64,000 bases of DNA from an uncultured Gammaproteobacteria bacterium (GTDB taxonomy: Bacteria > Patescibacteriota > Microgenomatia > JAMCZE01), in assembly GCA_964576435.1 (NCBI GenBank), contig CAZNUP010000001.1, positions 98,345 to 162,344 on the forward strand, written 5' to 3'. Shown here piece after piece: positions 1-18,452 of this stretch. A program made the translations under genes and the position numbers. The notes beneath the pieces were generated by a model. It was given only the letters and a program-made list of their open reading frames with translations. It ran no database searches and was not told where the DNA came from. Every line of letters begins with the position of its first letter. The first letter of the stretch is position 1.

Positions 1-294
1 CAAAAAATTATATTTGAAAGTCCTGATCCAATTCTAAAAGCGGAAGCTTTGAAAAAGTTACAGTTTGTTGAAAGACAAAAACAAACACCATTAGATGCCA
101 GAAACGAATTAGTTTTTTGGCAATCACAAAATCAAAAGTATCCAGGAAGTAGAGACACATTACTAAAGATCGCTGTTTTAAATTGGAAACTTTATAGACT
201 TTTTGAAGCAAGCAAATTTTTAAATCTTGCAGCACAAATTGATCCAAATAATTCTTCTATTGAAAAGGTAAAAACAAACCTGGAGTTAAATTAA
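1..294 (+). CDS. 5'-truncated ORF (reading frame is open back to window position 1); C-terminal fragment of a hypothetical, possibly TPR-like helical repeat protein
   Basis: The frame of the listed ORF 49..294 is open back to position 1 with no stop. Its composition is alpha-helical repeat-like. The antisense ORF 8..247 looks like noise. Confidence 0.4.
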   Translation, partial: QKIIFESPDPILKAEALKKLQFVERQKQTPLDARNELVFWQSQNQKYPGSRDTLLKIAVLNWKLYRLFEASKFLNLAAQIDPNNSSIEKVKTNLELN

Positions 295-977
295 GTCTTT
301 GGTTCTGGAGCTTCTTCACCCTTTACTTCTCCGCCTTCTGCTGGAGCTTCTGTAGAACCTTCTGCACCTGCTTCTTCAGTCTTAGCTGCTTCTTCTGCTG
401 CCATCTCTTTAGCTGTATCTTCTGAAACTGCCGATCCAACGTTTACTACTGTTTCTTCTCCACTTGTCAAAACTTCAACACCCTTAGGCAGCTTAAGGTC
501 AGACACTTTAATTTGCTGTCCAACTTCCGTTAAACCATTAACGTCAGCCAAGACTTCTTCAGGAAGCTCAGTTGGCAATGCTTCAACTTCAATTTCATTA
601 AGTGTTTGAAGGAGAACTCCAACACCATCTTTAACTGCTGGTGACTCCCCTTCCAAGTGAACCGGAACGTTAGCTTTAATTTTGTCAGTGAGTTTAACAG
701 CATGAAGTTCAGCATGAAGTGGTTGTCTAGTTAGTGGGTGAATTTGAACGTTCGAAACAAGAACGTGTTGTGTTTTTCCGCCGTATTCAAGTTCAATAAG
801 TCCGGTCTCTCCAGCCTTGGCATAAATTGCCATGAATTCCTTAAGAGGAACTGACAATGATTCGGATTTAATTTCTTTACCAAACACTCCAACAGGCAAC
901 TTACCTTCTTTTCGAAGCTTTTTAACCTGCTTTCCGGTGATTTCTCGCTTTTCAGCTTTTAAATTAATCTTTTGCAT
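291..977 (-). CDS. rplY: 50S ribosomal protein L25 / general stress protein Ctc, with an acidic Ala/Glu-rich C-terminal tail
   Basis: The N-terminal 'KREITGKQVKKLRKEGKLPGVFG...' and overall layout are typical of the L25/Ctc family. The acidic low-complexity tail is common in Ctc-type L25. Confidence 0.85.
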   Translation of the reverse strand: MQKINLKAEKREITGKQVKKLRKEGKLPVGVFGKEIKSESLSVPLKEFMAIYAKAGETGLIELEYGGKTQHVLVSNVQIHPLTRQPLHAELHAVKLTDKIKANVPVHLEGESPAVKDGVGVLLQTLNEIEVEALPTELPEEVLADVNGLTEVGQQIKVSDLKLPKGVEVLTSGEETVVNVGSAVSEDTAKEMAAEEAAKTEEAGAEGSTEAPAEGGEVKGEEAPEPKT

Positions 978-3509
978 TTAGTTTTGTTTGAACTTAACCT
1001 CAAATGTCTTATCCGTATCCAGTACCGTATTATAAATGAGCTCTTGTGGATACACAATAGGGCTAGGTACAAACGGGCTTGTATCTATATTTGGCTTCAA
1101 AAAGGTAGGATATCCAATTATTACGTTAAGAGGATCAAATGTGCTCCCCGATTGTTTAAGAATTGTGAAACTATACTTGTCCTCACTCTTAGAAAAATCC
1201 AACTGGTTAGGCATTATATATTTGAAAACCACCGTCTTCTTGGTCTTTACAGGCACTTCCACAAGCATTCCGAAGCTTGTATAGCCACTTGAAGATGCAC
1301 TATCAGACCGAAGGACTTGTTCATTACTTTTATAAACTAAAAATTCTTTTGGAGCTACTTTACTAAGGACATCGGCAGTTAGAATTGATGACACACTCGC
1401 TTTCCTATCGTCTCCAATATCTAAACTAAGCATTTTTGCCTGGTGGGGCACAAGTAGTCTCAGATAATTTTTATATTTTCCTCCCGGCCAACTATCATTT
1501 GGACTTTGATTATCAAAAGTCAGAGAAACTGTATTAGTGACTCCCCCACCCTTGTCGATTGTACTATCAACTTTCATTTTCTTTTTAACAAAATAGTTAG
1601 CTTTATTTGCTCCAAAGTTGTCTTCGACCGCCATAAAACAGTTTTGTCCACTTGAGCAGTGGTCAGGAAAAATTGACCCAGCAAATTCACTGTCTTCCGC
1701 TGCGCTTTGAACTGCTGTTGAAGTGAAATACAACATTATGTCTTTTTCTTGAAGTGCATCAGAAAACCCTTTAGCCAGTCCATCATAGCTAAGATTCTGT
1801 TCACTAGTTATGCGCCCCAGAATTGCTTCCGCCACTTCTCCTAAAAAGTCTCTCTTTTGTGTAGATCCTGGAAAAAAGTTAATTTCAGAAGCGTATTCTG
1901 CTTTTTGGAAAAAGTTCTTCGCCGTTATTGACTCGTCCGAGGATTGAATCTTAACCTCCCCCATTGCTTCAATAATTTTTTCAACCGCCCCAATATTAAT
2001 TGCAATTACCCCATCAACTCTCTGATTGGTTTCTTTTTCTAAAAACCAAGCCAATCTCTTGGCTGATAACGGAAAATCAGGTGAAAAATTAGCATCCCTC
2101 ATAAACCAAGCTGGCTGGCCAAGATAATGTAGGATTTCATCAGGTGGCACAATTCTCCCTTTAAGTTGTCCGTCCACTGAGTAGATGTCATTAATTTTAA
2201 AATCAAGAAGCCTGCCGTTATCAACATGCACAATTGCATAAGACCCTATAAATCCCCCGCCTCCACGAAGCTCAGCGCTATTTTGAAAAACCAGAAGATA
2301 AGTTCTTTTCTTAGATTCAGTCAGTGTGCTATCAGATACCCCAAGAACTTGAGGAACAACTGGTGATAGTTCCCGACCCGCACGAGCTAAAAATCTCATT
2401 TTAGGAAGTTGCGCCAAATATTTACCAAGCCTTGTCCTATTAAATCCAAACCTTTCTGCAATGGGTGCAATATATTGGTAATCTTTAGCAATGATTGCTT
2501 CCATAAATCCTAAATTTTCTTCAATAACCCCGCTATCAACTGCCGCTGACTCAGAAAAAGTTTGTAAGTCAGGCGCTTGCCCATCGGGTGAAAAAAAAGC
2601 TCTCGATAAGTTAAGAAGTTGTCCTTGTAAGCCTGCTCCTCGGTAAGCAGTATCCGCTGTTAAAGCTAAACCTGAAAACCCTCCACAGATAGAATCCAAC
2701 TTGTCAAAAAAGGCTACACTCACACACACATCTTTCATAGTAGTAAACTGATCACGAGCAGATTCCGCTGACTTTCGGGCCTTCAAAAATTCCCCTCGGC
2801 TAATAGCAGTTTTCGCACTCCAGAGTTCCAAAGAAGCATTCAGTGTATAAATCCCAGCGAAAAACAAAGGAAGCGTCAAAATCACAACAAATATCAAAAG
2901 CCATGCTAAATCTCGTGCTCCCCTATTAATTGCTTTTTTCTTCTTATTTTCTTTTTTTGTAACTACCACCCCAGATTGTGTCTCTGTAAAAGTTGGCTTA
3001 AGTATTTCTTTTGAAAAATCCCCCACCACCAACCTCTCACCAGGTCGAAATGAAAGCGCCATTCGTACCACTTTTCCAGCTACCTCCTGTTGAAGATCCA
3101 AGGTTTCTATTTTCGATCTGACCTCAACCACACTAGGATTAACTCCAATTTCACTAAACAGTCGTTCTGTTTTCTGCAGGCTATCTAAAGACACCTGTTC
3201 AAAAACCACCACCAAATTACTTGTGTGTCTAATTGCTGTAGTAGCAAGCTTTTTTAAAAACACTTCCCCTTCATTCTCAATTTTTGCTTCGTCCAAAAAC
3301 AAAAACAGATATTTAGCCTCAAGAATAGAAGCCAACTCTTCAATAGATTTAGCCCATGACACTTTAATTCCCTGGTTGGCAATAAGTTCTGAAATTTGAA
3401 GCGCCAAAGCTCCCGTGCCTGAAAAAACTGCCGTTGCCATGCTCATATTTTCTTCTCTCTCAGTTCGCACCACCATCTTTTGGGGACTTTGATCCATAAT
3501 AATAAACAT
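978..3509 (-). CDS. Large membrane-anchored DUF4012-family envelope protein (843 aa) with one TM helix after a cytoplasmic N-terminal domain
   Basis: 'ELRGGGGFIGSYAIV' matches the DUF4012 signature (NELRPTGGFIGS-like). A single hydrophobic helix lies around aa 200-225. The protein is long and predicted extracytoplasmic. Confidence 0.6.
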   Translation of the reverse strand: MFIIMDQSPQKMVVRTEREENMSMATAVFSGTGALALQISELIANQGIKVSWAKSIEELASILEAKYLFLFLDEAKIENEGEVFLKKLATTAIRHTSNLVVVFEQVSLDSLQKTERLFSEIGVNPSVVEVRSKIETLDLQQEVAGKVVRMALSFRPGERLVVGDFSKEILKPTFTETQSGVVVTKKENKKKKAINRGARDLAWLLIFVVILTLPLFFAGIYTLNASLELWSAKTAISRGEFLKARKSAESARDQFTTMKDVCVSVAFFDKLDSICGGFSGLALTADTAYRGAGLQGQLLNLSRAFFSPDGQAPDLQTFSESAAVDSGVIEENLGFMEAIIAKDYQYIAPIAERFGFNRTRLGKYLAQLPKMRFLARAGRELSPVVPQVLGVSDSTLTESKKRTYLLVFQNSAELRGGGGFIGSYAIVHVDNGRLLDFKINDIYSVDGQLKGRIVPPDEILHYLGQPAWFMRDANFSPDFPLSAKRLAWFLEKETNQRVDGVIAINIGAVEKIIEAMGEVKIQSSDESITAKNFFQKAEYASEINFFPGSTQKRDFLGEVAEAILGRITSEQNLSYDGLAKGFSDALQEKDIMLYFTSTAVQSAAEDSEFAGSIFPDHCSSGQNCFMAVEDNFGANKANYFVKKKMKVDSTIDKGGGVTNTVSLTFDNQSPNDSWPGGKYKNYLRLLVPHQAKMLSLDIGDDRKASVSSILTADVLSKVAPKEFLVYKSNEQVLRSDSASSSGYTSFGMLVEVPVKTKKTVVFKYIMPNQLDFSKSEDKYSFTILKQSGSTFDPLNVIIGYPTFLKPNIDTSPFVPSPIVYPQELIYNTVLDTDKTFEVKFKQN

Positions 3510-3537
3510 TGTAGAAGTTAAGGAGTGAAAAACAATA

Positions 3538-3963
3538 CTACGCAGTTTGTGAAACTTGTTTGTCCAAAGTTTCGTTAACTATTTTGTCGGCTTCAAAATT
3601 CTTTTCCCTAGGTACATAAGCATATGTGATTTTATCAGAAATTTCTGCTTCTAGTGTCTTAATTATCAAATATTTCTCTTTAAGGCCAGAATCTTTAATT
3701 TTGAAAGTCCCATTTAACTGATTAACAACCAAATTTGAATCTAAAAGGAATTCTATTTCTAACTCTCCCCTACTAAAAGACTCTTTTGCCCATTCTAATG
3801 CTAGAATCACTCCCCCATATTCTGCCTGATTATTGGTTGTTTCACCCAAATATTTCCCGCGTTTTAAAAGCACAATCCCCGCGCTATCTTTAGCAACAAA
3901 AGCCGAAGCTGCTGGTCCTGGATTTCCTCTGGCTCCTCCATCAGTATTGATTGTTATTTTCAT
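3538..3963 (-). CDS. rnhA: Ribonuclease HI (RNase H type 1)
   Basis: 'INTDGGARGNPGPAA...NNQAEY' matches the RNase HI catalytic core (DGG-S/A-RGNPGP; the E of AEY is catalytic). Confidence 0.8.
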   Translation of the reverse strand: MKITINTDGGARGNPGPAASAFVAKDSAGIVLLKRGKYLGETTNNQAEYGGVILALEWAKESFSRGELEIEFLLDSNLVVNQLNGTFKIKDSGLKEKYLIIKTLEAEISDKITYAYVPREKNFEADKIVNETLDKQVSQTA

Positions 3964-5279
3964 GGTTTAAGTTTAAGATTTTTTAAGTATTCACCTCTTT
4001 TTTCAAAAAGTTCTTTGCCTGTCAAAAAAAGATCACGTGGTCCAAATCGAACATTCTCTGTTTTTCGTAAAATAATAACACTCAATATCATAATTGTACC
4101 CTCAGTTAGAAACGTATTAAATGCTGCGCCGTATAGTGAAAATCTTGGAATTAAAAGCAAATTGAGTGCCAAATTTGCTCCCAAAGCTAAGATTGCAATA
4201 ATAAATGAATACCACTGCTTGCCAAGAGCTATGATTGCATAACCATTAAGATGGTTAAAGTAGGAAACAACTATAGCTAGTGACAAAATTCTAAGAGCTA
4301 GCACTGACGGCTGAAATTCCGGTCCCCCAAGGATTAAAATCGCTAGGGGAGCAAAGATAAAATTTAAAATAGCTACGGTAACACCCATTCCTAAAAGCAC
4401 CACAAAACTTTTTACATATATTTGTCTAAATCGAGCCTGATCTTTATGAGCAAGATTTGAAAGTATAGGTAGGACCGAATTAGCAAAGTATGCTGCTCCT
4501 AAAACCAACACATCATACACTTTGTATGACGCTCCGTAAAATCCAACCGCTTCAGCCCCCTTCATATAACCAAGAATCACAATGTCCAGGCGGTTATAAA
4601 CTGTAAATAAAACTAGAAGTGATCCAACAGGTAGGGCAGCCTTAACTACCCTGGCCATAATTTCCTTATCAAACCCGAACTTCCATTTGACAAGTTTAAA
4701 CGCAAAAAACATCGCAAGAGCCAATGATGCTACCTGGCCAAGATTCATCGCCCATATAAACCCAGATATTCCTGAATCCTGTGTAATTAGGTACAAAACC
4801 AAGACAAGCCCTAATACATTCGCAGCTAGTTCCGAAATTGCCCAAAACTCCATTCTAAGTTTTGCATTAAAAACAATCTGGAAAGATGTCTTAAGAGAAA
4901 AAAGTACAATAAACACCGATCCAATGAGGATAAGACCCTCCATAGAAGGGGAGTGGGGGAGGACGCGAATAACAATGTTGGCAAGAATTGCCGCAAGGAA
5001 GGCCAAAACCAGTCTCAGCGTCAAAATATTTCCAGCAATTAGACCTTCCTTTTCAGGGTTTTTACTAACCTCATTGATTCCGACAAGATACAAACCCCAG
5101 TCAGCAATTGACCCAAACATCATCACAAATACAAGAACGAAGGTATAATCTCCATAACCCTTAGGACCAAGGTACCGAGTCAAAAAAATAGTAATTGCCA
5201 AACCAAGCCCAGTAGTAATGACTTTCCCCAGAAGTTGAATCCCAGTATTCCATGCAACTTTCCCTGAATGTGAACTCAT
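3960..5279 (-). CDS. Polysaccharide/oligosaccharide flippase, MOP superfamily (Wzx-like)
   Basis: About 12 predicted TM helices. The N-terminal 'NTGIQLLGKVITTGLGLAITIFLTRYLGPKGYGDY' is typical of Wzx/polysaccharide biosynthesis protein family. The 4-nt overlap with the upstream gene suggests an operon. Confidence 0.7.
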   Translation of the reverse strand: MSSHSGKVAWNTGIQLLGKVITTGLGLAITIFLTRYLGPKGYGDYTFVLVFVMMFGSIADWGLYLVGINEVSKNPEKEGLIAGNILTLRLVLAFLAAILANIVIRVLPHSPSMEGLILIGSVFIVLFSLKTSFQIVFNAKLRMEFWAISELAANVLGLVLVLYLITQDSGISGFIWAMNLGQVASLALAMFFAFKLVKWKFGFDKEIMARVVKAALPVGSLLVLFTVYNRLDIVILGYMKGAEAVGFYGASYKVYDVLVLGAAYFANSVLPILSNLAHKDQARFRQIYVKSFVVLLGMGVTVAILNFIFAPLAILILGGPEFQPSVLALRILSLAIVVSYFNHLNGYAIIALGKQWYSFIIAILALGANLALNLLLIPRFSLYGAAFNTFLTEGTIMILSVIILRKTENVRFGPRDLFLTGKELFEKRGEYLKNLKLKP

Positions 5280-6481
5280 TCCCTTATTCTAGCAAAAGCC
5301 AGCCCAAGAATTAGAGCGACAAGAAGTTGTCCCTGCTGTAAGGTGAAAAAGTAGTGGTCAACCATCCCTAAAAACAGAATAGATACCAAGCTGGCAACAA
5401 ACACCCATTCTTTGTGTCTCCATACTCGGTAAATTGCCAATCCGAAAACGGCCACTAATCCAATTAGTCCAAGCACTCCAGTTTCACCTAAACTCATAAG
5501 GTAAATGCTGTGCGTTGGCTGGTAACTAAGTGCGTAATTTTTAATTCTAATTTCCGGGTTTTTATATAACGGACTGGTTCCAAGTCCAGTTCCTAAAATA
5601 GGGGAGCGAACAAAGTTTTCCTCTGCAAGAACACTAAGTTGCCCTCGAACTTCAAGAGATTCAAGGCGACTTGGTAAACACATTGATAAAAGCCCAATAA
5701 TAATTGCCAAACAAACTAGAAATATCAATTTCTTCCCAGATTTTAAATACAAAACAATCGCTATTTGTGTAAGACCCACACTAATTGCTGCCCGGGACAT
5801 AGTTAAAAATAAGGTAGATAATCCAAACGCTAAAACCCCTGCGGTAATCTTGCGGAATTTATGCGGGAAATAATATAAAATTAAGGGTAGAGTAATCGCC
5901 AAAAAGCCTCCTAAAACGTTTGGATGAGAGAAAGTTCCATATGGCCTAAGAACTAGTTGTCCATCAAAACTAGTATTAGCAACTCCCGGAGTAATCGAAT
6001 TAAAAGATCTTTCGCCAAAAAGCCAAAACACTCCGCCAAGTGACCCAATTTTCCAAAATTGAAGAAATGAAAGAGCTGATTCAAAAAAAACTGGGATCAC
6101 TAAAAGTAGAGTAATCGTCCTAATTTTTATATTGCTTTGATAAATCCACCACACCAGAAACGCAAGTTCTAAGACTTTCAGCCATTTATAAATTGAAACA
6201 AAAGGGGATAGGGAAGTGGCTATATTTAATATAGCTACTAGGGCTATAACTCCAAAAATAATTAACCTTTTTCCAGAAAACCACTTAAAAAGTTTCTTAA
6301 ATGCGAGAAGGAAAAGAACAAAAACCAAAATATCAGTTAAGTATAAAGTAGGGGAGAAATAATCAACTCTAACTCCTGAAATAAATGCAAAGTCTGGCCA
6401 AAAATGCCGTCCCAACTGGCTAGGTAACAAAATTATCAGTAAATAAAATGTGTATGTTTGTAATTTTTTCAAGCTCGACAC
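5276..6481 (-). CDS. O-antigen ligase-like / Wzy_C-type polytopic membrane protein
   Basis: Polytopic membrane protein with a periplasmic loop region. It shares an operon with the flippase. The assignment rests on topology and context only. Confidence 0.5.
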   Translation of the reverse strand: MSSLKKLQTYTFYLLIILLPSQLGRHFWPDFAFISGVRVDYFSPTLYLTDILVFVLFLLAFKKLFKWFSGKRLIIFGVIALVAILNIATSLSPFVSIYKWLKVLELAFLVWWIYQSNIKIRTITLLLVIPVFFESALSFLQFWKIGSLGGVFWLFGERSFNSITPGVANTSFDGQLVLRPYGTFSHPNVLGGFLAITLPLILYYFPHKFRKITAGVLAFGLSTLFLTMSRAAISVGLTQIAIVLYLKSGKKLIFLVCLAIIIGLLSMCLPSRLESLEVRGQLSVLAEENFVRSPILGTGLGTSPLYKNPEIRIKNYALSYQPTHSIYLMSLGETGVLGLIGLVAVFGLAIYRVWRHKEWVFVASLVSILFLGMVDHYFFTLQQGQLLVALILGLAFARIRE

Positions 6482-6565
6482 AAACTCATACTACAATAGC
6501 GTCTACCAGAAACCAACAACAAAATAAATATAGACAAATTTAATTTGATAGTTTAAAAATGGGTT

Positions 6566-7150
6566 GTGATTAAAACTCAAACAGAAGAACTCCTAGATCT
6601 GGTAGCAGGTTTAAACCATCTTCCAATATCAAAACAGTTTCTCGAAAGACTATCAAAAGGAAACCCCACCCGTGACGAAAACCCAGAAAGTCATTTTTGT
6701 GTCTATTTTGTTGCTTTCGACCCAAAAGAGGAAAAAATATTTACAGGTTTGCACAAAAAATCTAATTTATGGCTTGTCAACGGCGGCCATTTAGACAAAG
6801 AGCCAGTTAAAAACGCAGCACCAAGAGAAATGGGTGAAGAATGGGGTTACAATCTTCCAGATGGATATGAATTAATTCCTCAATTTTTAACCATAGCAAA
6901 TATTACAGACAGGCCCCAGATTAAATGTCGCACTCATTATGATTTCTGGACTTTCGTTCCTGTTAATATGCATGAATTTAGTCCAGATCAAGAAAAATTG
7001 GCATCCGAATACCATAAAACAGCCTGGTTATCATTCGAAGAAGCAAAAAAAGTAACAACAGACCCAAGCAACTTGTTGGGCTTTGACTTTATCAAAAAGT
7101 ATTTACTACCCACAAAGCCCAAACCTCTCAAGCTTCTGCACATCTCTTGA
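6566..7150 (+). CDS. NUDIX hydrolase
   Basis: Nudix box 'GGHLDKEPVKNAAPREMGEEWGY' fits GX5EX7REUXEEXGU. Confidence 0.75.
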   Translation: MIKTQTEELLDLVAGLNHLPISKQFLERLSKGNPTRDENPESHFCVYFVAFDPKEEKIFTGLHKKSNLWLVNGGHLDKEPVKNAAPREMGEEWGYNLPDGYELIPQFLTIANITDRPQIKCRTHYDFWTFVPVNMHEFSPDQEKLASEYHKTAWLSFEEAKKVTTDPSNLLGFDFIKKYLLPTKPKPLKLLHIS

Positions 7151-7196
7151 AATAAATATAATCACATAATATAATCTATTTATACTTTAAGTTATA

Positions 7197-7955
7197 ATGA
7201 GTGACAATTTATTAACCATTAAAGAATCCGCCGAGCTTTTAAATATTCACTGGCAGACAGTGAGAAACCTTATAAAAAACGGTTCTCTGCCAGCCACCAA
7301 AATAGGGAAGAATGTTAGGGTAAAAAGAAGTGATATAGATAAACTGGTAAACAAAACCACCCAAAAAGACAAAATTGAGGTAGAAATCCGTTTTCTAACG
7401 AAAAATAGACAACAAGTTGAAAACAAATTAATTTCGATTGGTGCCAAAGTAACATACCATAGCCACATAATTGACCACTGGTTCGTCCCATATTACATAA
7501 AAAGTCTTTCTGAAAATGACGAATGGTTTGAATCCGCCAAAGGTTATGGTGTAAGGATCAGGGAACAAGACAATAACTATCAAGGAAAGGTCTCAACAAC
7601 TTTGGAGGTAAAACGCCTAACGTCAGCTAAAAACCACAATACCTGCATAGAGCACGAGCTTGACGTTCAAAATTACACTGAAGCCAGTAATCTCCTAAGA
7701 TTAATGGAATATAAAGAATTTATTACTATTGATAAAGATAGGGTAGTCTACACCTATAAAAACCTAAAAATTGCAGTGGATGAAATCAAAAACTTTGCTA
7801 CAGGTATTGAAATTGAAGCTAGTGGCGACCTAACAAGAGAAGAAGCACTAGCTGAAATTAGGATCTTTGCAGAAGTGTTAGGCTTAAAAAAATCAGAAGA
7901 GCTCGAAAAAACTGTCACCCATCTAGCCATGCAAAAGCTAGCTAAGTATTCTTGA
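7197..7955 (+). CDS. Fusion protein: N-terminal excisionase/MerR-type HTH (HTH_17-like) plus C-terminal CYTH (CyaB/thiamine-triphosphatase-like triphosphate tunnel) domain
   Basis: 'LLTIKESAELLNIHWQTVRNLIKNGSLPATKIGKNVRVKRSDIDKL' is a textbook excisionase-type HTH. It is followed by the CYTH N-terminal ExExK-like motif 'KIEVEIRF' and the C-terminal 'GIEIEASGD' acidic motif. Confidence 0.6.
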   Translation: MSDNLLTIKESAELLNIHWQTVRNLIKNGSLPATKIGKNVRVKRSDIDKLVNKTTQKDKIEVEIRFLTKNRQQVENKLISIGAKVTYHSHIIDHWFVPYYIKSLSENDEWFESAKGYGVRIREQDNNYQGKVSTTLEVKRLTSAKNHNTCIEHELDVQNYTEASNLLRLMEYKEFITIDKDRVVYTYKNLKIAVDEIKNFATGIEIEASGDLTREEALAEIRIFAEVLGLKKSEELEKTVTHLAMQKLAKYS

Positions 7956-7971
7956 TAGGTGAACAACAATA

Positions 7972-8247
7972 TCAAGGACGGGGAGTAATATTCTCTCTAG
8001 GAACTAGAAATCTATTTGAGTCAAAAAAACCATATCCGCCGCCAAAATTCGGAGTTTGAACTAAAGCATACGAACCTCTAAGTGCGATAACGTCAACCTG
8101 TAAACCATTGGGGCCTAGGCTGGACTGATCAAAAAAACCCAAATGATATTTCCCTTTTGCATCTCTTACAGAAACACTTCTTTCTGACGAAAACATTCCA
8201 GCAGAAACTTTACATTCAAGAAAGTAGTGTATTTCCTGAGAAGACAT
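7972..8247 (-). CDS. Hypothetical small protein (may not be a real gene)
   Basis: ORF only. It fills the gap between the CYTH gene and jag. No motif recognised. Confidence 0.2.
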   Translation of the reverse strand: MSSQEIHYFLECKVSAGMFSSERSVSVRDAKGKYHLGFFDQSSLGPNGLQVDVIALRGSYALVQTPNFGGGYGFFDSNRFLVPRENITPRP

Positions 8248-8258
8248 AAAACTTACTA

Positions 8259-8756
8259 TTAAGAAGCTTTAAGTTTAATAATGAGGCGACGCATATTGCC
8301 TTCACCTTCAGATTCAGTTACTACATCAGGGTGATCTTGAAGAGCCATGTGAATTATTCTTCTTTCAATTGGAGGTAAAGAGGGAAGTGCAATTGGTTGT
8401 CCTGTTTGAACTACTTGGTCAGCATAAGAAAGTGCCATTTGGGAAAGTTGTTCTTCTCTTTTAGCTCTATAGTCTCCAACCTCAACCACAATTCTCACCC
8501 ATTCGCCAACCTTCTTAGTCACAATTTGCCCAAGAATTAATTGGAATGCTGAAAGTGTTTCCCCGTGATATCCAATTAAAAGCCCTGATTCTTCAGTTTC
8601 GACATTTACTAAAAACACTTCTTCAGGTGAAGGTGTCACTAAAACTGCCGCAGGGATATCCATATTGGATAGTAGTTCCTCAGCACTGGCTTTGATTATT
8701 TCTTCTTTTGAATTGTTTTCTGTTTTTTTCTTAGGCATTTTTTTGTTCTTTCCCAA
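8259..8756 (-). CDS. jag: Jag/KhpB-like RNA-binding protein (KH + R3H domains)
   Basis: C-terminal R3H motif 'IERRIIHMALQDHPDVVTESEGEGNMRRL'. Conserved position downstream of yidC. Confidence 0.75.
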   Translation of the reverse strand: MGKNKKMPKKKTENNSKEEIIKASAEELLSNMDIPAAVLVTPSPEEVFLVNVETEESGLLIGYHGETLSAFQLILGQIVTKKVGEWVRIVVEVGDYRAKREEQLSQMALSYADQVVQTGQPIALPSLPPIERRIIHMALQDHPDVVTESEGEGNMRRLIIKLKAS

Positions 8757-9507
8757 TTAACTTACGTAATTTTACCACGTCCTGTCCCAATGAGCCAAGT
8801 CCCGTAATTCTATATTGTTGAGCGATTGCAATTGAGCTTGAAACTGTCCAATAAATAGCTAAACCTGCAGGCCATTTAGTACCTAAAAACAAGAAAATAA
8901 GAGGAAACATCCACACCATTGAACTCTGAGCATCAGCAAATTCACTCATAAAGTCACCCTTTTTCTCAGGTTCCCCTTTTTTAACGACTGCTTTAGCAGG
9001 TTTCGGAGCTTTTGCAGGCATCATCATTTTGGTTTGGATGTACTGAGTAATGGCTGCCGCAATAACTAAAAGACCAGGGATCGCAAATGGAGCTCCTGCA
9101 ATATGATATGCATTTGGCAAGGCAACATCCCACCACAAAAACTGTGTGTTAATGTTTTTCATTACTAAAATGTGATTCATTGCTCCCAAAAGTCCAAAAA
9201 GAACCACAATTTGAACTACAGCTGGTAAACATCCTCCCGCAGGATTAACTCCATGTTCCTTAAATAGTGCCATTTGAGCGCTAGCAAAAGCCTGTTGATC
9301 ACCTTTGTGTTTTTCTTTAAGAGCAGAAATGTGAGGCTGCAGGTCACTCATTTTCTTAGTGTAGTGTGCTTGTTGCTTAGCCAGTGGATAGAAGATAATC
9401 CTTGAAATTACGGCAATTTCAATAATGGCAACACCAAGGTTTTGAAAGGCTATCGTATTATAGACAAACAAAATTATCTGAAGAAAAATGTCTGAAAATA
9501 TTTGCAT
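8731..9507 (-). CDS. yidC: Membrane protein insertase YidC/Oxa1 family (short form)
   Basis: 'GGCLPAVVQIVVLFGL' and TM layout typical of YidC. Position in the rpmH-rnpA-yidD-yidC-jag operon. Confidence 0.85.
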   Translation of the reverse strand: MQIFSDIFLQIILFVYNTIAFQNLGVAIIEIAVISRIIFYPLAKQQAHYTKKMSDLQPHISALKEKHKGDQQAFASAQMALFKEHGVNPAGGCLPAVVQIVVLFGLLGAMNHILVMKNINTQFLWWDVALPNAYHIAGAPFAIPGLLVIAAAITQYIQTKMMMPAKAPKPAKAVVKKGEPEKKGDFMSEFADAQSSMVWMFPLIFLFLGTKWPAGLAIYWTVSSSIAIAQQYRITGLGSLGQDVVKLRKLIGKEQKNA

Positions 9508-9522
9508 AGTTTATTTTGGAAA

Positions 9523-9726
9523 TTAAGAGGGGACTGGGTCAAATCCACCTTTAAAAAACCCATTGCACCTAAGGATCCGTTTCACCCCTAAATAAGTTCC
9601 TCTGATTATACCATGTCGACCAACTGCCTGGAGCATATATTCACTACAAGTTGGGCTAAATCTACAAGTTCCCACAGGAAATGCATAAACCAAATACTTT
9701 CTATATATATTAATAAGTATGGTCAT
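9523..9726 (-). CDS. yidD: Membrane protein insertion efficiency factor YidD
   Basis: 'YRKYLVYAFPVGTCRFSPTCSEYMLQAVGRHGIIRGTYLGVKRILRCNGFFKGGFDPVP' is the conserved YidD (haemolytic domain) sequence. Confidence 0.85.
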   Translation of the reverse strand: MTILINIYRKYLVYAFPVGTCRFSPTCSEYMLQAVGRHGIIRGTYLGVKRILRCNGFFKGGFDPVPS

Positions 9727-10061
9727 ATAAGCTTTGCTCTTCTAAAAACACTCTCCACTTCTAATTTTAACTCTTCTTGTGTTGTTTTAGTTACCAAAGT
9801 CTTAGCTAAAAAAACAATTTCTACATTTTTAGAAAGTCTTGGTAAGAACCCAGAAACTGCATTACTTAGCTTACGCTTACATTCGTGCCTGGTAACAGAG
9901 GATTTACTTATCTTTTTGCTCACAATAAATGCGCATTTAGGCCCAATTTCTTTATCAAAGCTAACGATAATCCCAAAAGAAGGAGCATCATACACTTTTC
10001 CACCTTTGCGGATTCTTTCAAACTCTGAAGTAAGAGGAATTAGTTTTTTTCGAGCAAGCAT
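9723..10061 (-). CDS. rnpA: Ribonuclease P protein component
   Basis: Basic ~110 aa protein with 'FGIIVSKK...' layout. Canonical position between rpmH and yidD. Confidence 0.8.
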   Translation of the reverse strand: MLARKKLIPLTSEFERIRKGGKVYDAPSFGIIVSFDKEIGPKCAFIVSKKISKSSVTRHECKRKLSNAVSGFLPRLSKNVEIVFLAKTLVTKTTQEELKLEVESVFRRAKLI

Positions 10062-10064
10062 TTC

Positions 10065-10202
10065 TTAGATAGAAAGTTTCTTGCGACCCTTGGCCATTCT
10101 TCTTTTAATGACTTTTCGACCGTTTCTAGTAGAAGTCCGAGCCATAAAACCATGTTTTCTAGCTCTTTTTAATTTCTTTGGTTGATAAACTCTCTTTGGC
10201 AT
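10065..10202 (-). CDS. rpmH: 50S ribosomal protein L34
   Basis: '[45 protein letters not shown]' is near-universal L34. The true start is the internal Met of the 70-aa track ORF, so I trimmed the 5' end to 10202. Confidence 0.85.
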
Positions 10203-10249
10203 ACCTCCGATTATCCTACAAATTGACTCATTTGTACATATTGAAATAT

Positions 10250-10258
10250 TGTGGATAA
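10250..10258. promoter_or_regulatory. Perfect DnaA box (TGTGGATAA = reverse of TTATCCACA) in the rpmH-dnaA divergent spacer
   Basis: Exact 9-mer read in the sequence, 10 nt upstream of the dnaA start codon. Consistent with dnaA autoregulation. Confidence 0.6.
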
Positions 10259-10267
10259 CTTTTAGAA

Positions 10268-11653
10268 TTGGCCTCAATGGACTTAGAAAAAATTTGGCAC
10301 CAAGTTTTAGCCGAGCTTGAAGTTGAACTGGGTAAAAGTCAGTTTAGACTTCACTTCCAAAATTCCGAACTCATTTCCTTTGAAGATGGCATTGCTAAAA
10401 TCAGTTTTCCCAATAAAGGGATTGCTGACCAAGTTAACATTCGCTATTACACCCTCATTCAAAATTCACTTCAAAAAATCTCTTCAATAGACAAAGTTAG
10501 TCTTGTTTTTGAAGTTAAAGTAAAGCCACAAACTAAAACAGAAGACACAAATCCTGAAGAACTAGGTCCACTTTTTAACTCAGAAAGAGAGGACCAAGAA
10601 GAGTTCATTCAAGCGGTTAAGAGAAATGGTCTTCGCTCCGATTTTTCCCTAGATGAATTTTGTGTTTCAACAAGTAATCAGTTAGCTTTCGCCGCCGCTC
10701 AAGCAGTTATTAAAGATCCAGGCAGAAACTATAATCCATTTTTCATTTGGGGCGGAGTTGGAATTGGCAAAACTCACCTAATGCAAGCAATTGGCATAGA
10801 GATCTTGAGAAAAAACCCCAGAGCAAGAATTGTTTATGCTTCCTGCGAGCAATTTACAAATGAAATCATCCAAGGTATAAGGAGCAAAAACACTCATGAT
10901 TTCAAAGAAAAGTATCGTGGAGCAGACGCACTATTAATAGATGACATTCAATTTCTTTCCGGCAAAGACACAGCTCAAGAAGAGTTTTTCCATACTTTTA
11001 ATGCAATCCAACAAAGAGAAGGTCAAATAGTCATGACTTCAGATACTAAGCCTTCAGACATTAAAAATTTAGCTGACAGACTAAAGAGTCGTTTTGAAGG
11101 TGGATTAGTCGCAGACATATCTGCACCCGATTCTGAATTAAAAACAGCTATCTGTCTGCTAAAAGCTCGCAAAAGAGGAGTCGAATTATCCACAACGGTA
11201 GCATCTAGTATATCCAGTAATGTGGATAATATTCGTTCACTAGATGGTGCAATAAAATTAGTTATTTCAACAGCTTCTTCAGAAAATAAAGAAATAACTC
11301 CTGAGTTCGTATCTGAAGTTTTGAAAATTCCTTTAGAACAAGGGTCAGCTGGCAGGCAAACCCTTGATGCTAGAACTATTCTTGATGAGGTTTGTAACTA
11401 CTATGGTCTCTCAATTAAATTAATAAAGGGTGACAAAAGAGATAGACCAATAGCAGAACCTCGCCAAATCCTCATGTACCTCCTAAGGAAACAAACCAAA
11501 ATGACTTTAGATGAAGTCGCTGCCTTCCTTGGGGGAAGAGACCACTCAACTATTATTCATGGCGAAGACAAAATAGAAGCCCTTGTAGAAACAAACGACC
11601 GAATTAAAAAAGATGTCTCCGCTATTGAGCTTCGCCTAGGTGTGACTAACTAG
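10268..11653 (+). CDS. dnaA: Chromosomal replication initiator protein DnaA
   Basis: Walker A '[15 protein letters not shown]', AAA+ core, and C-terminal DnaA-box binding domain ('[38 protein letters not shown]'). Confidence 0.95.
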
Positions 11654-11924
11654 GTTTACAACTTTCAAAGAAATGGGGGATATGTGGATATTTTTTCGTG
11701 TCTATAAACATATCAACATTTATCCACAATTGTCCACAAAAGTTATCAACATCTCACCAAGTATTTTATCCACATCAATATTTTTATTTATCTACTAGCC
11801 CCAATCGTCTATCTGTCATTTTCATACCCATATCCACGCTACCTACTACTACTGCTACTAGTTAAAACAAAAGGAAACCGACGGTTGAAAAAAACACTTA
11901 ACCGAAATATTATGTGGGCAACCT
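11654..11924. promoter_or_regulatory. Candidate oriC: AT-rich dnaA-dnaN spacer with at least 6 DnaA boxes
   Basis: TGTGGATAT 11683-11691; TTATCCACA 11720-11728 (perfect); TTGTCCACA 11730-11738; TTATCAACA 11743-11751; TTATCCACA 11766-11774 (perfect); TATCCACG 11831-11838. Flanked by dnaA and dnaN. Confidence 0.75.
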
Positions 11925-13049
11925 ATGAAGCTAGAAGTCCTACAAGAAAACTTATCGTCCGCTTTGACAACTGCCACAAGAATTATTAGTTCCAAACCTC
12001 AACTTCCTATTCTAACTAATGTCTTCCTCAAGGCCTCAAAAGAGGGAAGTCTCTTAATTGCTTCAAATGTTGATTCTACAATTATTGTTCCGTTTGGATC
12101 TAAAATCATTGACGAAGGTGAAATCTGTGTCCCTGGTAGAACTTTCCAAGAATTAATTTCCTCTCTCCCAAGCGACAAAATAATTCTCGAAGCCAAAGAA
12201 ACCTCTTTAATTGTTAAGGAGTTAAAGTTCCAAGGAAAAATAACTTGCATGCCCGGAAGCGACTTTCCAACGCCTCCCAAAGAACCTAACGCAACAGTTT
12301 GGAAAATGTCAAAGAATACTTTTCAAACCGCACTCAGTGAAACTCTATTTTCAGCAGCTGTTGATGAAACAAGAGCAGTTTTAAACGGTGTTCTATTTAA
12401 ATTTGATGGAAGTGCACCTATGTTGGTTGCAACCGATGGTTTTAGACTCTCTAAATATACACTGGAGTCGGATTCTAAAATTCCCAAGGATTTAACTCAG
12501 TTAGTTCTTCCTTCTAAAGCGCTTCAAGAAGTTTCCAGATTGCTTTCCGATTCAAGTGTTGGTGATTTTGAAATTCATTTTGGAGAAACAAACACCGTTT
12601 CCTTTTTAATTGGAGAAATTGAATTCTATTCACAAACTATTGCTGGTAATTTTCCAAGTTTCGAAAAGATAATTCCCTCAACATTTGACATTAAGATTAA
12701 ATTAAACGCCGAAGAGTTATTAAAATCTATAAAAAGTGCCGCCATTTTCGCAAGAGAAAATGCCAACATTATTAATTTTAATATTCATGACAACACAATG
12801 ACCGTCCGGGCTCAAGGTGGGGAAGTCGGAGAAAATGAAACAGAACTTGATATTGAAGTAGAAAAGCCACCAGTTGGTAGTTTTAGTGTTTCTTTTAATT
12901 TTCGCTATGTTTTAGATTTCCTAGGGAGTTTAAATGGTGCTAAGGACATAACCCTGGAACTTGGTACACCCACTTCTGCTGCGCTTTTTAGACCTATAAA
13001 AGTAGATAATTACCTCCATATTATTATGCCTGTGAGAGTGCAAGGCTAA
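11925..13049 (+). CDS. dnaN: DNA polymerase III beta subunit (sliding clamp)
   Basis: 374 aa. The N-terminal 'MKLEVLQENLSSALTTATRIISSKPQLPILTNVFLKA' is typical of DnaN. Canonical position after dnaA. Confidence 0.9.
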   Translation: MKLEVLQENLSSALTTATRIISSKPQLPILTNVFLKASKEGSLLIASNVDSTIIVPFGSKIIDEGEICVPGRTFQELISSLPSDKIILEAKETSLIVKELKFQGKITCMPGSDFPTPPKEPNATVWKMSKNTFQTALSETLFSAAVDETRAVLNGVLFKFDGSAPMLVATDGFRLSKYTLESDSKIPKDLTQLVLPSKALQEVSRLLSDSSVGDFEIHFGETNTVSFLIGEIEFYSQTIAGNFPSFEKIIPSTFDIKIKLNAEELLKSIKSAAIFARENANIINFNIHDNTMTVRAQGGEVGENETELDIEVEKPPVGSFSVSFNFRYVLDFLGSLNGAKDITLELGTPTSAALFRPIKVDNYLHIIMPVRVQG

Positions 13050-13095: not shown

Positions 13096-13941
13096 ATGTT
13101 ATTACATAGATTGCTGGGTATCTCTTCGGAAAGAAATTACTCTGACGAACAATTTTTGGCAATTGTGAAGCAAGAAGGGTTTCAAGATAAGATACTTCAG
13201 GAAGATCCAATTAGCAATCCTGATATATCAGAGGCTGCAAGAATCCTATTTTCCTTTATTCCTCCTGTTCCAAACGATCCACGATGGCTCCTCGCTCAAA
13301 AATTTTCTCAATTAAGAGATATGGAGGGAAGGAAACCTGGCTTTGCACTACATAATGGCTTAATGAGCATTTATCTTTCTAAAAATATAAGTTATAGAGA
13401 TGGGTTTGCTTCAACATTGTCCGAACCTAATATTCGCCAACATTGTCGCGCAATGTGGAACATGGAGTTTGCTAGAAAGCTTGAAATGTCTAACAGGCAA
13501 CAGCGCCTACAAATTTCAAATGAATTTTATCTACGGTATGCCCGCACAGAAAGTGTTCAGAGAGGTAAGGATGAAAAGGGAGTTACTGGATGTCCCGAAT
13601 CACTTTCTCAAGTTCAGGCGTTTTATGAGGGAAATTATATAGGTAGAGTAGGATTTAATGCACATATTGAGGGAAGCTCGACAATAATTTCAATTGTTAA
13701 CATGCAAGGTGTTCCCGGTGTTGATTATCGAGAATTTCAAGATCAAGCACAAATACCTATCTTCAATACTCTCGTTAAAGCTGTGAGTACTCTGAGTGAA
13801 ACATTAGATGGGACAAATTATATTGAACTTCGTGGGCTTAAGAACCCAAAAAATGGGGACAGTCGACTATATAACTCCGTGTTAAAAAGAGAAAAGATTG
13901 ACCGTTATCACTATAAGCATAAACAAAGAGTAACTAGTTAG
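13096..13941 (+). CDS. Hypothetical protein (281 aa), no recognisable motif
   Basis: Long ORF with protein-like composition. It occupies the slot where recF/gyrB usually follow dnaN, and is convergent with the VirB4-like gene. Confidence 0.4.
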   Translation: MLLHRLLGISSERNYSDEQFLAIVKQEGFQDKILQEDPISNPDISEAARILFSFIPPVPNDPRWLLAQKFSQLRDMEGRKPGFALHNGLMSIYLSKNISYRDGFASTLSEPNIRQHCRAMWNMEFARKLEMSNRQQRLQISNEFYLRYARTESVQRGKDEKGVTGCPESLSQVQAFYEGNYIGRVGFNAHIEGSSTIISIVNMQGVPGVDYREFQDQAQIPIFNTLVKAVSTLSETLDGTNYIELRGLKNPKNGDSRLYNSVLKREKIDRYHYKHKQRVTS

Positions 13942-15806
13942 GCTACTCTCACATTTCCAGCCTGAGGTGATGGTGGAGTCGATTTTGTCTTATCAAGTGG
14001 GTTAGTTGTAATTAGTTTGTATTCATCAGGTGAAGCAACTACTCTCATAGCGACATGTGACGCTCCCGCAAAAAATAGTCCCTCTCCAACATTTGCCGAT
14101 AAAAGCAAACTTTTCTCTCCTTCAGATAAATAGAATATGTCGGCCACTTTTTCAATTGCCGCAGGGGACTGTTTCATAAGAATCTGAATAGATGAGTTAG
14201 TGACAACTGTTTTTCCAAGATCCGTTGCCAAAAAATCCTCGATATCTTGAGTAATGGTTGTTAAACCAAGATAATATTTTCGAGCTCTCTTTGCAAAGTT
14301 CCATAAAAATTCTGCTGATGCCGGATCCTTCATTAAATACCACGCTTCATCCACAATTAAGATCCTCTTTTTAATTTCTCGCTTCATTGAGTTCCACATA
14401 AAGTCCATGATAATGAAAATCGCAATACTTCTAAGTTGGTCTTCAAGATTCTTGAAAGAAAAAGCGGTGAAGTTGTTATTAAGTTTGATATTGCTTCGCT
14501 GATTAAAAATCGTCCCAAAGCTTCCTTTAACAAACTTCTCAAGTCTAAGAGCAATATTTTGTGCCGCTGTGGTTTCCATTCCAACAAGTACCTTGTAGAG
14601 ATCTTCTAAGATAGGGGGTTCATTCTTATGTGTGGATGGATCAAAAGTAATTCCTTTCTGTCTGTATGTAAGTTCCAGTGCGTTGTGAAGAATTGCCTCT
14701 TCTTCAGCTGTCGTTGTCCCAACCATTAGCTTTAAAAGCCTAATAAGCGTAAATCCGATTTTGTACTGCAAATCATTTTCTTGTGGGTCATCGTTAGTTC
14801 CCGCCAGATCAAATGGATTAATGTGGGTATCACTTGAGAAAGAGAATGAAATATAGTCACCACCAACGCTTTCTGCTAAGGGCTTATATTCTTCTTCAGG
14901 ATCAATAATGATCACTCCCGCTCCAAACATTAGTGACCGAAGTGCCTCAAGTTTAACAAGGAAAGATTTTCCGCCTCCCGACTTTCCAAGCACAACCTCA
15001 TTAGCATTTTCCATGCTAAACCTATCAAAAATTATTAGTGAATCATTGTGCTCATTAATCCCATATAAAACACCTTGGTTAGCAGTAAGTTCTGATGAAG
15101 TAAATGGAAATGTTGTAGCCAGGGAAGTTGTGTCCATATTTCTTGTGATCATCAGTTTATCGACACAAAACGGTTGTGTTGTCTTAAATGCATCCTCCAT
15201 TTGAAGTGCTGATCTTTTTCCAATGAGAAGTAGGGAAGCAAGTGTTGACTCAACCTGTTTTGAAATTTGGTTAAGGTCAGGGAGATTTTCCGCTGACACC
15301 GTCACATATAAACCAAACTGGAAAAATCTCTCCGCCCCCTTGGCTAGTTGCTCCTGCATCGATAAAGCATCGTCAAGTGCTACTTGGACGGATGGATCAA
15401 TAACCCGGCCTCTTTTAATGTCACTTTCAATAGTCGCCTCCATCTCAGCAATCTTTCTCTTAAGATTGTTAAGAATATCTCTTGATTCAACTGGATATAT
15501 AAACATTGCCACATCCATCGAAGAGTCGAAATTGATAATAGGTGATAGCCAATTTGCTGCTACAAACCTTGGGTATCCAGATACAAACAGCGATCTATAG
15601 TAAGCGTTACCAATCTTCAAATAGTCAAAATCCACTTCTATGGATTCAGGGGCAATCAGATCAACAACCGGTGAATCTGGCATTTTAATTTGTGGACCTT
15701 TGTCTTTGATATCGCTCTGATTAACGCTCGCAAACGCTGGTCCCGCACTCTCAACTTGAGGTTTAGGAGGTGGGGCGCTTTTAGATAAAAATGTTGGTAA
15801 TTTCAT
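13938..15806 (-). CDS. VirB4/TrbE/PrgJ-like type IV secretion ATPase, central plus C-terminal ATPase part
   Basis: Walker A 'GKSGGGKSF', Walker B 'ILIVDEAWYLM'. The central 'YYRSLFVSGYPRFVAANWLSPII' region is typical of VirB4 (yxrtl.v..yP...). Size and layout match the CagE/TrbE/VirB4 family. Confidence 0.8.
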   Translation of the reverse strand: MKLPTFLSKSAPPPKPQVESAGPAFASVNQSDIKDKGPQIKMPDSPVVDLIAPESIEVDFDYLKIGNAYYRSLFVSGYPRFVAANWLSPIINFDSSMDVAMFIYPVESRDILNNLKRKIAEMEATIESDIKRGRVIDPSVQVALDDALSMQEQLAKGAERFFQFGLYVTVSAENLPDLNQISKQVESTLASLLLIGKRSALQMEDAFKTTQPFCVDKLMITRNMDTTSLATTFPFTSSELTANQGVLYGINEHNDSLIIFDRFSMENANEVVLGKSGGGKSFLVKLEALRSLMFGAGVIIIDPEEEYKPLAESVGGDYISFSFSSDTHINPFDLAGTNDDPQENDLQYKIGFTLIRLLKLMVGTTTAEEEAILHNALELTYRQKGITFDPSTHKNEPPILEDLYKVLVGMETTAAQNIALRLEKFVKGSFGTIFNQRSNIKLNNNFTAFSFKNLEDQLRSIAIFIIMDFMWNSMKREIKKRILIVDEAWYLMKDPASAEFLWNFAKRARKYYLGLTTITQDIEDFLATDLGKTVVTNSSIQILMKQSPAAIEKVADIFYLSEGEKSLLLSANVGEGLFFAGASHVAMRVVASPDEYKLITTNPLDKTKSTPPSPQAGNVRVA

Positions 15807-17957: not shown

Positions 17958-18038
17958 ACACAGATCATCCTAACAACCCAAATATGAAAAACAATAGGGG
18001 AGTGATTTTCACATACAATTAGTTATAATTTAGATATT

Positions 18039-18452
18039 GTGAATGAGGATATTTTCCACCTTGGAATAAAAGCCATTATTCGAGACGTAAATGGAAAAAT
18101 TTTATTGAACAAGAAAATTTCAGGACAATACTGGGATTTGCCTGGTGGTAGGATTTCAAAAGGGGAAACAGTCGAACAAACACTTAAAAGAGAGTTGAAG
18201 GAGGAAATTGGAGTGAACGAAATCAAGTCAATGTTTCCATTTTCCATGGTGATCTCCAATTTTAGACTCACCAAAGAAGGAGATGTTGGATTGATTTTAT
18301 CAATATATCTTTGCGAGCTGGAAAATATAAATAATATATCAGCTAAAGAACCTGAAACAGAAATATGTTGGTTTGAAGTATTGGAAGCGAGTAGGTTGTT
18401 AGAGGCAAAATATCCAAAGAATTTTACTGAGGAAATTAAAAAACTTAGATAA
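18039..18452 (+). CDS. NUDIX hydrolase
   Basis: Nudix box 'GGRISKGETVEQTLKRELKEEIGV'. Confidence 0.75.
   Translation: MNEDIFHLGIKAIIRDVNGKILLNKKISGQYWDLPGGRISKGETVEQTLKRELKEEIGVNEIKSMFPFSMVISNFRLTKEGDVGLILSIYLCELENINNISAKEPETEICWFEVLEASRLLEAKYPKNFTEEIKKLR

Follow-up and report, generated by a model that had tools for sequence, protein, structure and literature searches.

The physiological role of prokaryotic CYTH enzymes, or triphosphate tunnel metalloenzymes (TTMs), has been described as 'largely elusive' (PMC8233210). Here we examine a gene of a Patescibacterial genome that joins a CYTH domain to a domain of DNA-binding type in a single polypeptide; it lies at positions 7197 to 7955 of a 64-kb stretch of contig CAZNUP010000001.1, which is referred to throughout as the window. 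The best structural and sequence matches of its CYTH domain are SaTTM (Saci_0718) and the archaeal 'cluster 3' TTMs (1yem from P. furiosus; 2dc4 and 2een from P. horikoshii), which are single-domain proteins of about 165 to 198 residues, have no DNA-binding domain and are approximately 20% identical to the fusion. SaTTM, the closest relative to have been characterised biochemically, is a triphosphatase that prefers inorganic triphosphate (PPPi), which it hydrolyses about 19 times faster than nucleoside triphosphates (NTPs), and it forms no cyclic nucleotide. It is a dimer in solution, and CYTH proteins typically dimerise. Ligand binding takes SaTTM from an open to a closed form, and its N-terminus (M1 to E5), which precedes the ExExK motif, is disordered in the former and ordered in the latter.

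Accessory domains on CYTH proteins have precedents in YgiF (CYTH-CHAD) and in plant TTM1/2 (P-loop kinase-CYTH), but the accessory domains of these proteins bind polyphosphate or nucleotides whereas that of the fusion is of a DNA-binding type. A sequence-similarity-network survey of the CYTH proteins recorded CHAD and phosphoribulokinase-type accessory domains only and no cluster in which a helix-turn-helix (HTH) is joined to CYTH. We found no HTH-CYTH protein described in the literature. Proteins that combine an HTH with an enzyme or enzyme-like domain, and in which substrate occupancy controls DNA binding, include BirA, NadR and NrtR (Nudix-related transcriptional regulator). We liken the logic of the fusion to that of these regulators, whose catalytic folds are unrelated to CYTH; for the fusion, DNA binding and an effect of the ligand upon it are proposed. 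The excisionases, whose family gives a strong sequence and fold match to the N-terminal 50 residues of the fusion, are small and standalone and act together with an integrase, whereas the HTH of the fusion is joined to an enzyme. We consider it quite possible, if short of probable, that the fusion is a single-polypeptide regulator or 'trigger enzyme', in which a catalytically competent TTM is combined with a sequence-specific winged HTH.

Domain architecture and predicted fold

The features of the fusion gene and its protein are as follows.

7197 to 7955, forward strand: HTH_17-CYTH fusion gene, 252 amino acids (Pfam and NCBIfam profiles, AlphaFold2 model, Foldseek)
7209 to 7355, forward strand: winged HTH of the excisionase/MerR-like HTH_17 type, residues 5 to 53 (PF12728, TIGR01764, model)
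7248 to 7277, forward strand: recognition helix, H18-W19-Q20-T21 followed by V/I and R (38-member alignment)
7356 to 7376, forward strand: variable linker, residues 54 to 60 (low model confidence)
7377 to 7955, forward strand: CYTH/triphosphate-tunnel domain including the C-terminal plug helix, residues 61 to 252 (PF01928, model, Foldseek)
7377 to 7391, forward strand: ExExK/R hallmark E61-V-E63-I-R65 on strand 1 (38-member alignment)
7548 to 7562, forward strand: G118-x-R120-x-R122, the small residue and both phosphate-binding Arg residues of the TTM signature (alignment, criteria of PMC8233210)
7809 to 7817, forward strand: metal-binding ExE, E205-x-E207, on strand 8 (38 of 38 members; aligns to E135/E137 of SaTTM)

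An earlier reading of this locus, made from the nucleotide sequence alone and referred to here as the sequence-only reading, had assigned an HTH_17 domain to the N-terminal segment and a CYTH domain to the remainder. Both assignments were borne out by profile searches. Residues 5 to 53 match PF12728 (E = 8.6e-14; 52 bits against a cut-off of 27) and the N-terminus also matches the 'excise' model TIGR01764 (E = 1.6e-14; 54 bits against 28.8), while residues 60 to 236 match PF01928 (E = 5.1e-8; 33.4 bits against a gathering score of 23.2) over positions 2 to 175 of the 179 in that profile. The two motifs picked out by eye, 'EVEIRF' and 'IEIE', are real and are the catalytic motifs E61-x-E63-x-R65 and E205-x-E207, with both Glu pairs present in all 38 members of the family.

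The tunnel fold that had been assumed is also found in an AlphaFold2 model built with 38 relatives (mean predicted local distance difference test score [pLDDT], 92), which contains eight strands and a C-terminal helix. In this model, the HTH consists of helices at residues 8 to 15, 19 to 27 and 44 to 51 with a beta wing at residues 34 to 43; the linker is disordered at residues 54 to 56 (pLDDT, <50); and the plug helix spans residues 240 to 248, with K238 and T241 conserved. Foldseek comparison of residues 60 to 250 (approximate limits) returned 1yem (E = 3.6e-12; TM score, 0.85) and SaTTM (7ns9; E = 1.3e-11), with further matches to the Yersinia pestis class IV adenylate cyclase (YpAC-IV; 2fjt), 2dc4 and 2een. 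For the modelled CYTH region, these scores are far beyond chance. The HTH resembles small phage HTH proteins among viral predicted structures (TM scores of 0.7 to 0.88) and its profile also matches the small HTH protein Gp37 (4j2n), while no viral predicted structure in BFVD matched both domains.

The predicted activity of the CYTH domain

Vogt et al. (2021; PMC8233210) have provided discriminators for the activities of CYTH proteins: in true class IV adenylate cyclases (AC-IV), HFxxxxExExK is present, the first Arg of xRxR gives way to a small residue and strand 8 reads ExA; W/Y-x-R-x-R marks the thiamine triphosphatases; and TTM triphosphatases have a small residue followed by both Arg residues, plus ExE. 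None of the three cyclase features occurs in the fusion family. The position of HF, four residues before ExExK (residues 55 and 56), falls within the variable linker and is occupied by HF in 0 of 38 members, while R120 and R122 are both present in all 38. Residue 118 is G in 35 members, S in two and A in one. A thiamine triphosphatase was rejected on this last count, as the aromatic W/Y, which in that enzyme stacks on the thiazolium ring, is absent.

The tunnel residues expected of a CYTH enzyme are all in place, with E61, E63, R120, R122, K139, E152, K180, R182, D195, E205 and E207 invariant in the 38 members and position 65 occupied by R in 36 and by K in two. In a profile alignment, G118/R120/R122 map to A54/R56/R58 of SaTTM, E205/E207 to E135/E137 and D93-x-W95 to the DxY motif, which places the water molecule in that enzyme. 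D93, H94, E123, Y128 and H147 are also invariant across the fusion family, and E154 is nearly so. H147 is an invariant addition of the Patescibacterial subfamily relative to the archaeal TTMs, to which the fusion family further adds H94, E123, Y128 and a longer beta2-beta3 insert. None of these four residues has a counterpart in SaTTM or 1yem and hence the preferred substrate may differ from that of SaTTM.

The TIGR00318 cyaB model scores the fusion at 36.7 bits, below its cut-off of 57.95. On the basis of this score and the discriminators of Vogt et al., the CYTH domain is predicted to be an active phosphohydrolase of the TTM type and not a cyclase, so that the cyclase activity entertained as one option in the sequence-only reading is not upheld. 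The candidate substrates are likely to be PPPi, short polyphosphate and the gamma-phosphate of NTPs. Y. pestis CyaB (2fjt/3n0y; TIGR00318) has the same fold as the CYTH domain, attains comparable Foldseek scores and often carries the same database name. The labels 'adenylyl cyclase CyaB' and 'excisionase', as applied to members of the fusion family, are probably both wrong.

Distribution and conservation of the fusion

The suspicion that this architecture is unusual proved well founded. A word-indexed search of 5.8 billion clusters recovered 62 proteins, nearly all of which have 247 to 257 residues and the HTH_17-plus-CYTH arrangement; these represent about 60 fusion clusters at 90% identity, in all of which the architecture is conserved. 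An exhaustive profile search of 1.84 billion representatives at 50% identity found about a dozen full-length fusions, followed by many standalone CYTH proteins of approximately 195 residues, at least some of them Patescibacterial, that match only profile positions 56 to 252 or thereabouts, and a scan of 185,579 species-representative genomes yielded 11 fusion loci. The named carriers belong to candidate division WWE3, Candidatus Dojkabacteria and the 'Patescibacteria group'. The fusions bear generic automatic names only, and these conflict with one another ('excisionase family DNA-binding protein', 'CYTH domain-containing protein' and 'predicted adenylyl cyclase CyaB'). One metagenome-assembled genome (SRP342105_co1_447) contains two diverged HTH-CYTH copies on different contigs (L018 and L020), with about 53% (over matched residues 1 to 211) and 44% identity to the window protein.

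Standalone Patescibacterial CYTH proteins of about 195 residues (for example, UniRef100_A0A1F5KIX3 of Candidatus Daviesbacteria) belong to the same subfamily and are 25 to 40% identical to the fusion over residues 56 to 252. They share with it the catalytic set, the invariant D93 and H147 and a C-terminal KSxT..M..A.F motif, but have no HTH and fall outside the fusion clade. In a neighbour-joining tree of the CYTH region, 40 fusions form one clade with 0 of 91 standalone proteins inside it, which indicates that the HTH was acquired once; no loss of the HTH was seen among these 40 fusions and 91 standalone proteins.

Mean pairwise identity among the fusions is 57% in the HTH, 76% in the recognition helix, 13% in the linker and 49% in the CYTH domain, and both domains are under purifying selection. 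All 38 aligned members have H18-W19-Q20 at the start of the recognition helix and at least 90% have T21, while the HWQT motif is absent from every other HTH_17 protein recovered, including those with multiple HTH_17 domains. As the constraint on the HTH exceeds that on the CYTH domain and the H-W-Q-T motif is exclusive to the family, the HTH is probably functional and probably recognises a conserved target. The HTH-CYTH combination is thus rare, confined to one lineage and strongly conserved, and the literature that we searched does not describe it, while both component families are well known.

The searches also recovered other domain combinations. Proteins with three to eight tandem HTH_17 copies were present among the profile matches, one of which (P0095; 479 residues) has eight copies and scores 321 bits against PF12728; such strings of HTHs are an unusual arrangement. 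A further fusion (P0117/P0220; 405 residues) joins a P-loop kinase-like AAA_18 domain to a CYTH domain of the same Patescibacterial subfamily, an arrangement that parallels the kinase-CYTH proteins TTM1/2 of plants.

The upstream region of the fusion gene

A candidate promoter lies directly upstream of the fusion gene.

7147 to 7175, forward strand: sigma-70-type promoter-like site, TTGAAA-17 nt-TATAAT (11 of 12 consensus matches)

The putative -35 element overlaps the stop codon of the preceding NUDIX gene and 21 nt separate the end of the -10 element from the ATG of the fusion gene, which has a short leader without an obvious Shine-Dalgarno sequence. We searched for operators as 6- and 7-mers enriched in the 150 nt upstream of the fusion gene in 14 distinct loci relative to AT-matched background windows. 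The only enriched words were TATAAT, TATAATC and ATATAAT. In four loci (L018, L019, L020 and L006), TATAAT or TATAAA lies 6 to 7 nt before the ATG, implying leaderless mRNAs. An Rfam scan by E-value of positions 6000 to 8600 gave zero matches to cis-regulatory RNAs.

The conserved M-S-D start of the protein shows an unexpected regularity, in that all 10 loci with this Ser use AGT for it (positions 7200 to 7202 of the window) despite the existence of six Ser codons. This constancy may possibly reflect a constraint at the nucleotide level. An explanation in terms of an inverted repeat was tested and rejected: a hairpin between an upstream 'TATCAC(T)' and the first codons, 'ATGAGTGATA', can be drawn in L018 (8 of 8 positions) and L014 (11 of 13), but the best complementarity averaged 7.64 of 10 positions versus 7.45 of 10 in shuffled sequences and TATCAC occurs upstream in 5 of the 14 loci, and we ascribe the pairing to chance.

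The NUDIX gene and the genomic context

Upstream of the fusion gene is a NUDIX hydrolase gene, with the following features.

6566 to 7150, forward strand: NUDIX hydrolase open reading frame (ORF), 194 amino acids, GTG start (PF00293, 27.7 bits against a cut-off of 21.1)
6782 to 6850, forward strand: Nudix box GX5EX7REUXEEXGU, GGHLDKEPVKNAAPREMGEEWGY, residues 73 to 95 (perfect pattern match on the translation)

The sequence-only reading described both ORFs correctly on every point, including their shared forward strand and the 46 nt between them (spacer confirmed at positions 7151 to 7196). It had further proposed that the two genes form a nucleotide-signalling cassette, and this proposal was not supported. 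We examined linkage by tblastn of the 194-residue protein (NUDIX-194) and two other query proteins (NUDIX-148 and wHTH-NUDIX) against all loci, together with reciprocal inspection of contexts. In the closest relative (L003), whose fusion is 77% identical and which shares origin-proximal synteny with the window, a NUDIX-194 homolog lies upstream of the fusion gene but is just 44% identical. NUDIX-194 is absent by tblastn from the remaining 12 distinct fusion loci, the surroundings of which are unrelated. The NUDIX-194 family is itself small (12 clusters), is Patescibacterial and occurs also in Candidatus Uhrbacteria; reciprocal look-ups of its homologs elsewhere found no CYTH neighbour. When 184 ORFs from 13 loci were clustered all against all, no neighbour family recurred beyond two local synteny pairs of close relatives. 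With adjacency in only 1 of 13 other loci, negative reciprocal contexts, no recurrent neighbour and a promoter of its own for the fusion gene, the NUDIX gene is a bystander, and the pairing is not conserved. The lack of any conserved neighbour and the presence of its own promoter indicate that the fusion gene is a self-contained, single-gene unit.

Three ORFs with an intact Nudix box occur within the 64 kb (6566 to 7150, 18006 to 18449 and 42156 to 42863), an unusually dense set for a small genome. At three per 64 kb, chance alone would put a NUDIX gene of some type within 6 kb on either side of the fusion gene about as often as is observed (4 of 13 loci). The third of these ORFs (42156 to 42863, forward strand) encodes a 235-residue protein with a winged HTH and a NUDIX domain (wHTH-NUDIX; HTH_45 at 24.5 bits, just under the cut-off, and NUDIX at 45.9 bits), and is NrtR-like in content, although its two domains come in the opposite order. 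It lies 35 kb from the fusion gene in the window, whereas in L003 an ortholog (40% identity; E = 7e-50) is located directly downstream of the HTH-CYTH gene (6804 to 7517).

The fusion gene is located in the chromosomal origin region, which occupies positions 1 to 13,000 of the window. It is preceded in order by genes for L25, a DUF4012 protein, RNase H, a polysaccharide flippase, a Wzy-like ligase and the NUDIX protein, and is followed by a 91-codon orphan ORF, jag, yidC, yidD, rnpA, rpmH, dnaA and dnaN. The GC content of the window is about 37 to 38%, with a modest dip to 0.35 at positions 6001 to 8000. The orphan ORF (7972 to 8247, reverse strand) is convergent with the fusion gene, their stop codons being 16 nt apart; searches of Pfam, NCBIfam, PADLOC and PHROG returned no match for it and none of the related loci has a homolog, while gene calling on an independent contig (L027) predicts it as well. 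Just past dnaN is an ORF for a 622-residue TraG-P-loop/AAA_10/DUF87 (VirB4-like) ATPase (13938 to 15806, reverse strand), flanked by ORFs of unassigned function at 13096 to 13941 (forward strand, 281 residues) and 15806 to 16471 (reverse strand, 221 residues). The region from 13096 to 16471 may be a type IV secretion or pilus-like module. No further CYTH or HWQT-type gene occurs within the window, and the neighbours of the fusion gene, here and at the other distinct fusion loci, include no integrase or recombinase.

Discussion

The sequence-only reading had suggested either a transcription factor with a phosphorylated ligand, which it would sense or consume, or an enzyme that is recruited to DNA. 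We retain the former as the best reading. A trigger enzyme of this type could work as follows. A dimeric CYTH core would present two HTHs to DNA. A triphosphate, a short polyphosphate or an NTP would enter the tunnel, and its binding would close the tunnel and order the segment just before the ExExK strand. As the HTH is tethered to this segment by approximately seven residues, occupancy of the tunnel would shift the geometry or mobility of the HTH and hence its affinity for DNA, while hydrolysis of the ligand would reset the switch. For the fusion itself, we infer that it dimerises and binds DNA, which ligand it takes up and that this ligand affects DNA binding. The promoter and the lack of a recurrent neighbour fit a self-contained, one-component unit of this kind.

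Several observations weigh against a trigger enzyme. Dimerisation and ligand-DNA coupling are extrapolated, by analogy, from an archaeal homolog with only some 20% identity to the fusion. The predicted TM-score of the model is 0.73, as against a mean pLDDT of 92, and the linker is disordered, such that the orientation of the two domains relative to each other is undefined by the model. No conserved operator or inverted repeat was detected upstream of the fusion gene in the 14 loci, a search that covered the gene's own upstream region only; hence, there is no evidence of autoregulation and no known target. An invariant recognition helix among proteins that share 41 to 78% identity with the window protein is also unusual for a local regulator, and could mean that the target is structural or otherwise not an operator.

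This last possibility would suit the main alternative, which we regard as unlikely and in which the HTH delivers a triphosphatase to DNA or RNA for action on a local substrate and has no role in transcription. Such an enzyme might remove the gamma-phosphate from the 5'-triphosphate ends of transcripts or primers, in the manner of Cet1, or clear triphosphate or NTPs locally at a particular site. The fully intact active site, which suggests that catalysis and not ligand binding alone is under selection, would suit this explanation, as would the TTM fold of Cet1-like RNA triphosphatases and the presence of mRNA capping enzymes among the viral fold matches. YjbK, a CYTH protein of Bacillus, robustly cross-links to RNA (PMC12234827). 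The combination of an invariant recognition helix and no detectable operator would likewise fit a non-operator target. However, the closest solved enzymes favour free PPPi over NTPs by about 19-fold and no RNA-processing or replication gene is consistently linked to the fusion. The HTH profile, moreover, matches Gp37 (4j2n) and, to our knowledge, HTH_17/excisionase-type domains bind double-stranded DNA in every characterised case. Less probable still is a plain metabolic triphosphatase, whose HTH would serve as a protein-protein or oligomerisation module or as a non-specific DNA binder for nucleoid localisation, with no regulatory output. Patescibacteria commonly have standalone CYTH proteins that share this catalytic set, so that the enzyme function pre-dates the HTH, and the failure to find an operator is also in keeping with this explanation. 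Against it, the HTH is more conserved than the CYTH domain and its invariant residues are situated at the start of the recognition helix, where bases are contacted; furthermore, no standalone protein falls inside the fusion clade and the sampled tree shows no loss of the HTH.

The other explanations are much weaker. We think it very unlikely that the NUDIX and HTH-CYTH genes constitute a nucleotide-signalling cassette, with the NUDIX enzyme supplying or breaking down a nucleotide common to both. The genes are co-directional with no terminator in the 46 nt between them, the Nudix box is intact and L003 retains NUDIX-194 upstream as well as wHTH-NUDIX directly downstream; but NUDIX-194 is missing from 12 distinct loci and has diverged in L003 far more than the fusion (44% versus 77% identity), its homologs elsewhere have no CYTH neighbour, no neighbour recurs, the proximity of NUDIX genes is close to chance and the spacer contains a promoter. 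There is, in our judgement, barely any likelihood that the fusion is a cAMP-producing class IV (CyaB-type) adenylate cyclase bound to DNA. The names in several databases imply this activity, and the weak match to TIGR00318 and a Foldseek match to YpAC-IV about equal to those with TTMs would fit it. However, each of the 38 members lacks HF, keeps the gatekeeper Arg120 and has ExE for ExA, the TIGR00318 score of 36.7 is below the cut-off of 57.95, and the similarly annotated SaTTM forms no cyclic nucleotide. Equally slight is the prospect that the fusion is a component of a mobile element or defence system, with an excisionase- or MADS-Mad1-like HTH and a nucleotide-depleting effector. The HTH does match excisionase, mad1 and phage HTH models, the neighbourhood differs in almost every genome and jumbo phages have CYTH triphosphatases. 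However, PADLOC and PHROGs match the HTH alone and nothing in them matches the whole protein, there is no consistent integrase, methyltransferase or defence neighbour, the surroundings in the window are housekeeping genes (yidC, jag, rnpA and dnaA) and the local dip in GC content is modest.

In summary, we favour the trigger-enzyme reading of a rare Patescibacterial protein that combines a winged HTH with a CYTH domain predicted to be a triphosphatase. A stronger form of this reading, which is possible but which we hold to be doubtful, is that the fusion is a self-resetting switch of an undescribed kind, with closure of the tunnel being passed to the tethered HTHs such that expression tracks the level of PPPi, short polyphosphate or NTPs and the sensor breaks down the ligand that it detects. 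If true, this switch would be the first regulatory output, and thus a physiological role, for a bacterial TTM. With it, the bacterial one-component regulators would gain a new sensor fold, and it would show how the reduced-genome Patescibacteria join sensing and metabolism in one protein. The DNA target of the HTH would show which genes answer to the ligand of the enzyme. The CYTH/TTM enzymes are ancient and ubiquitous, and the fusion gives a direct experimental way to their role.

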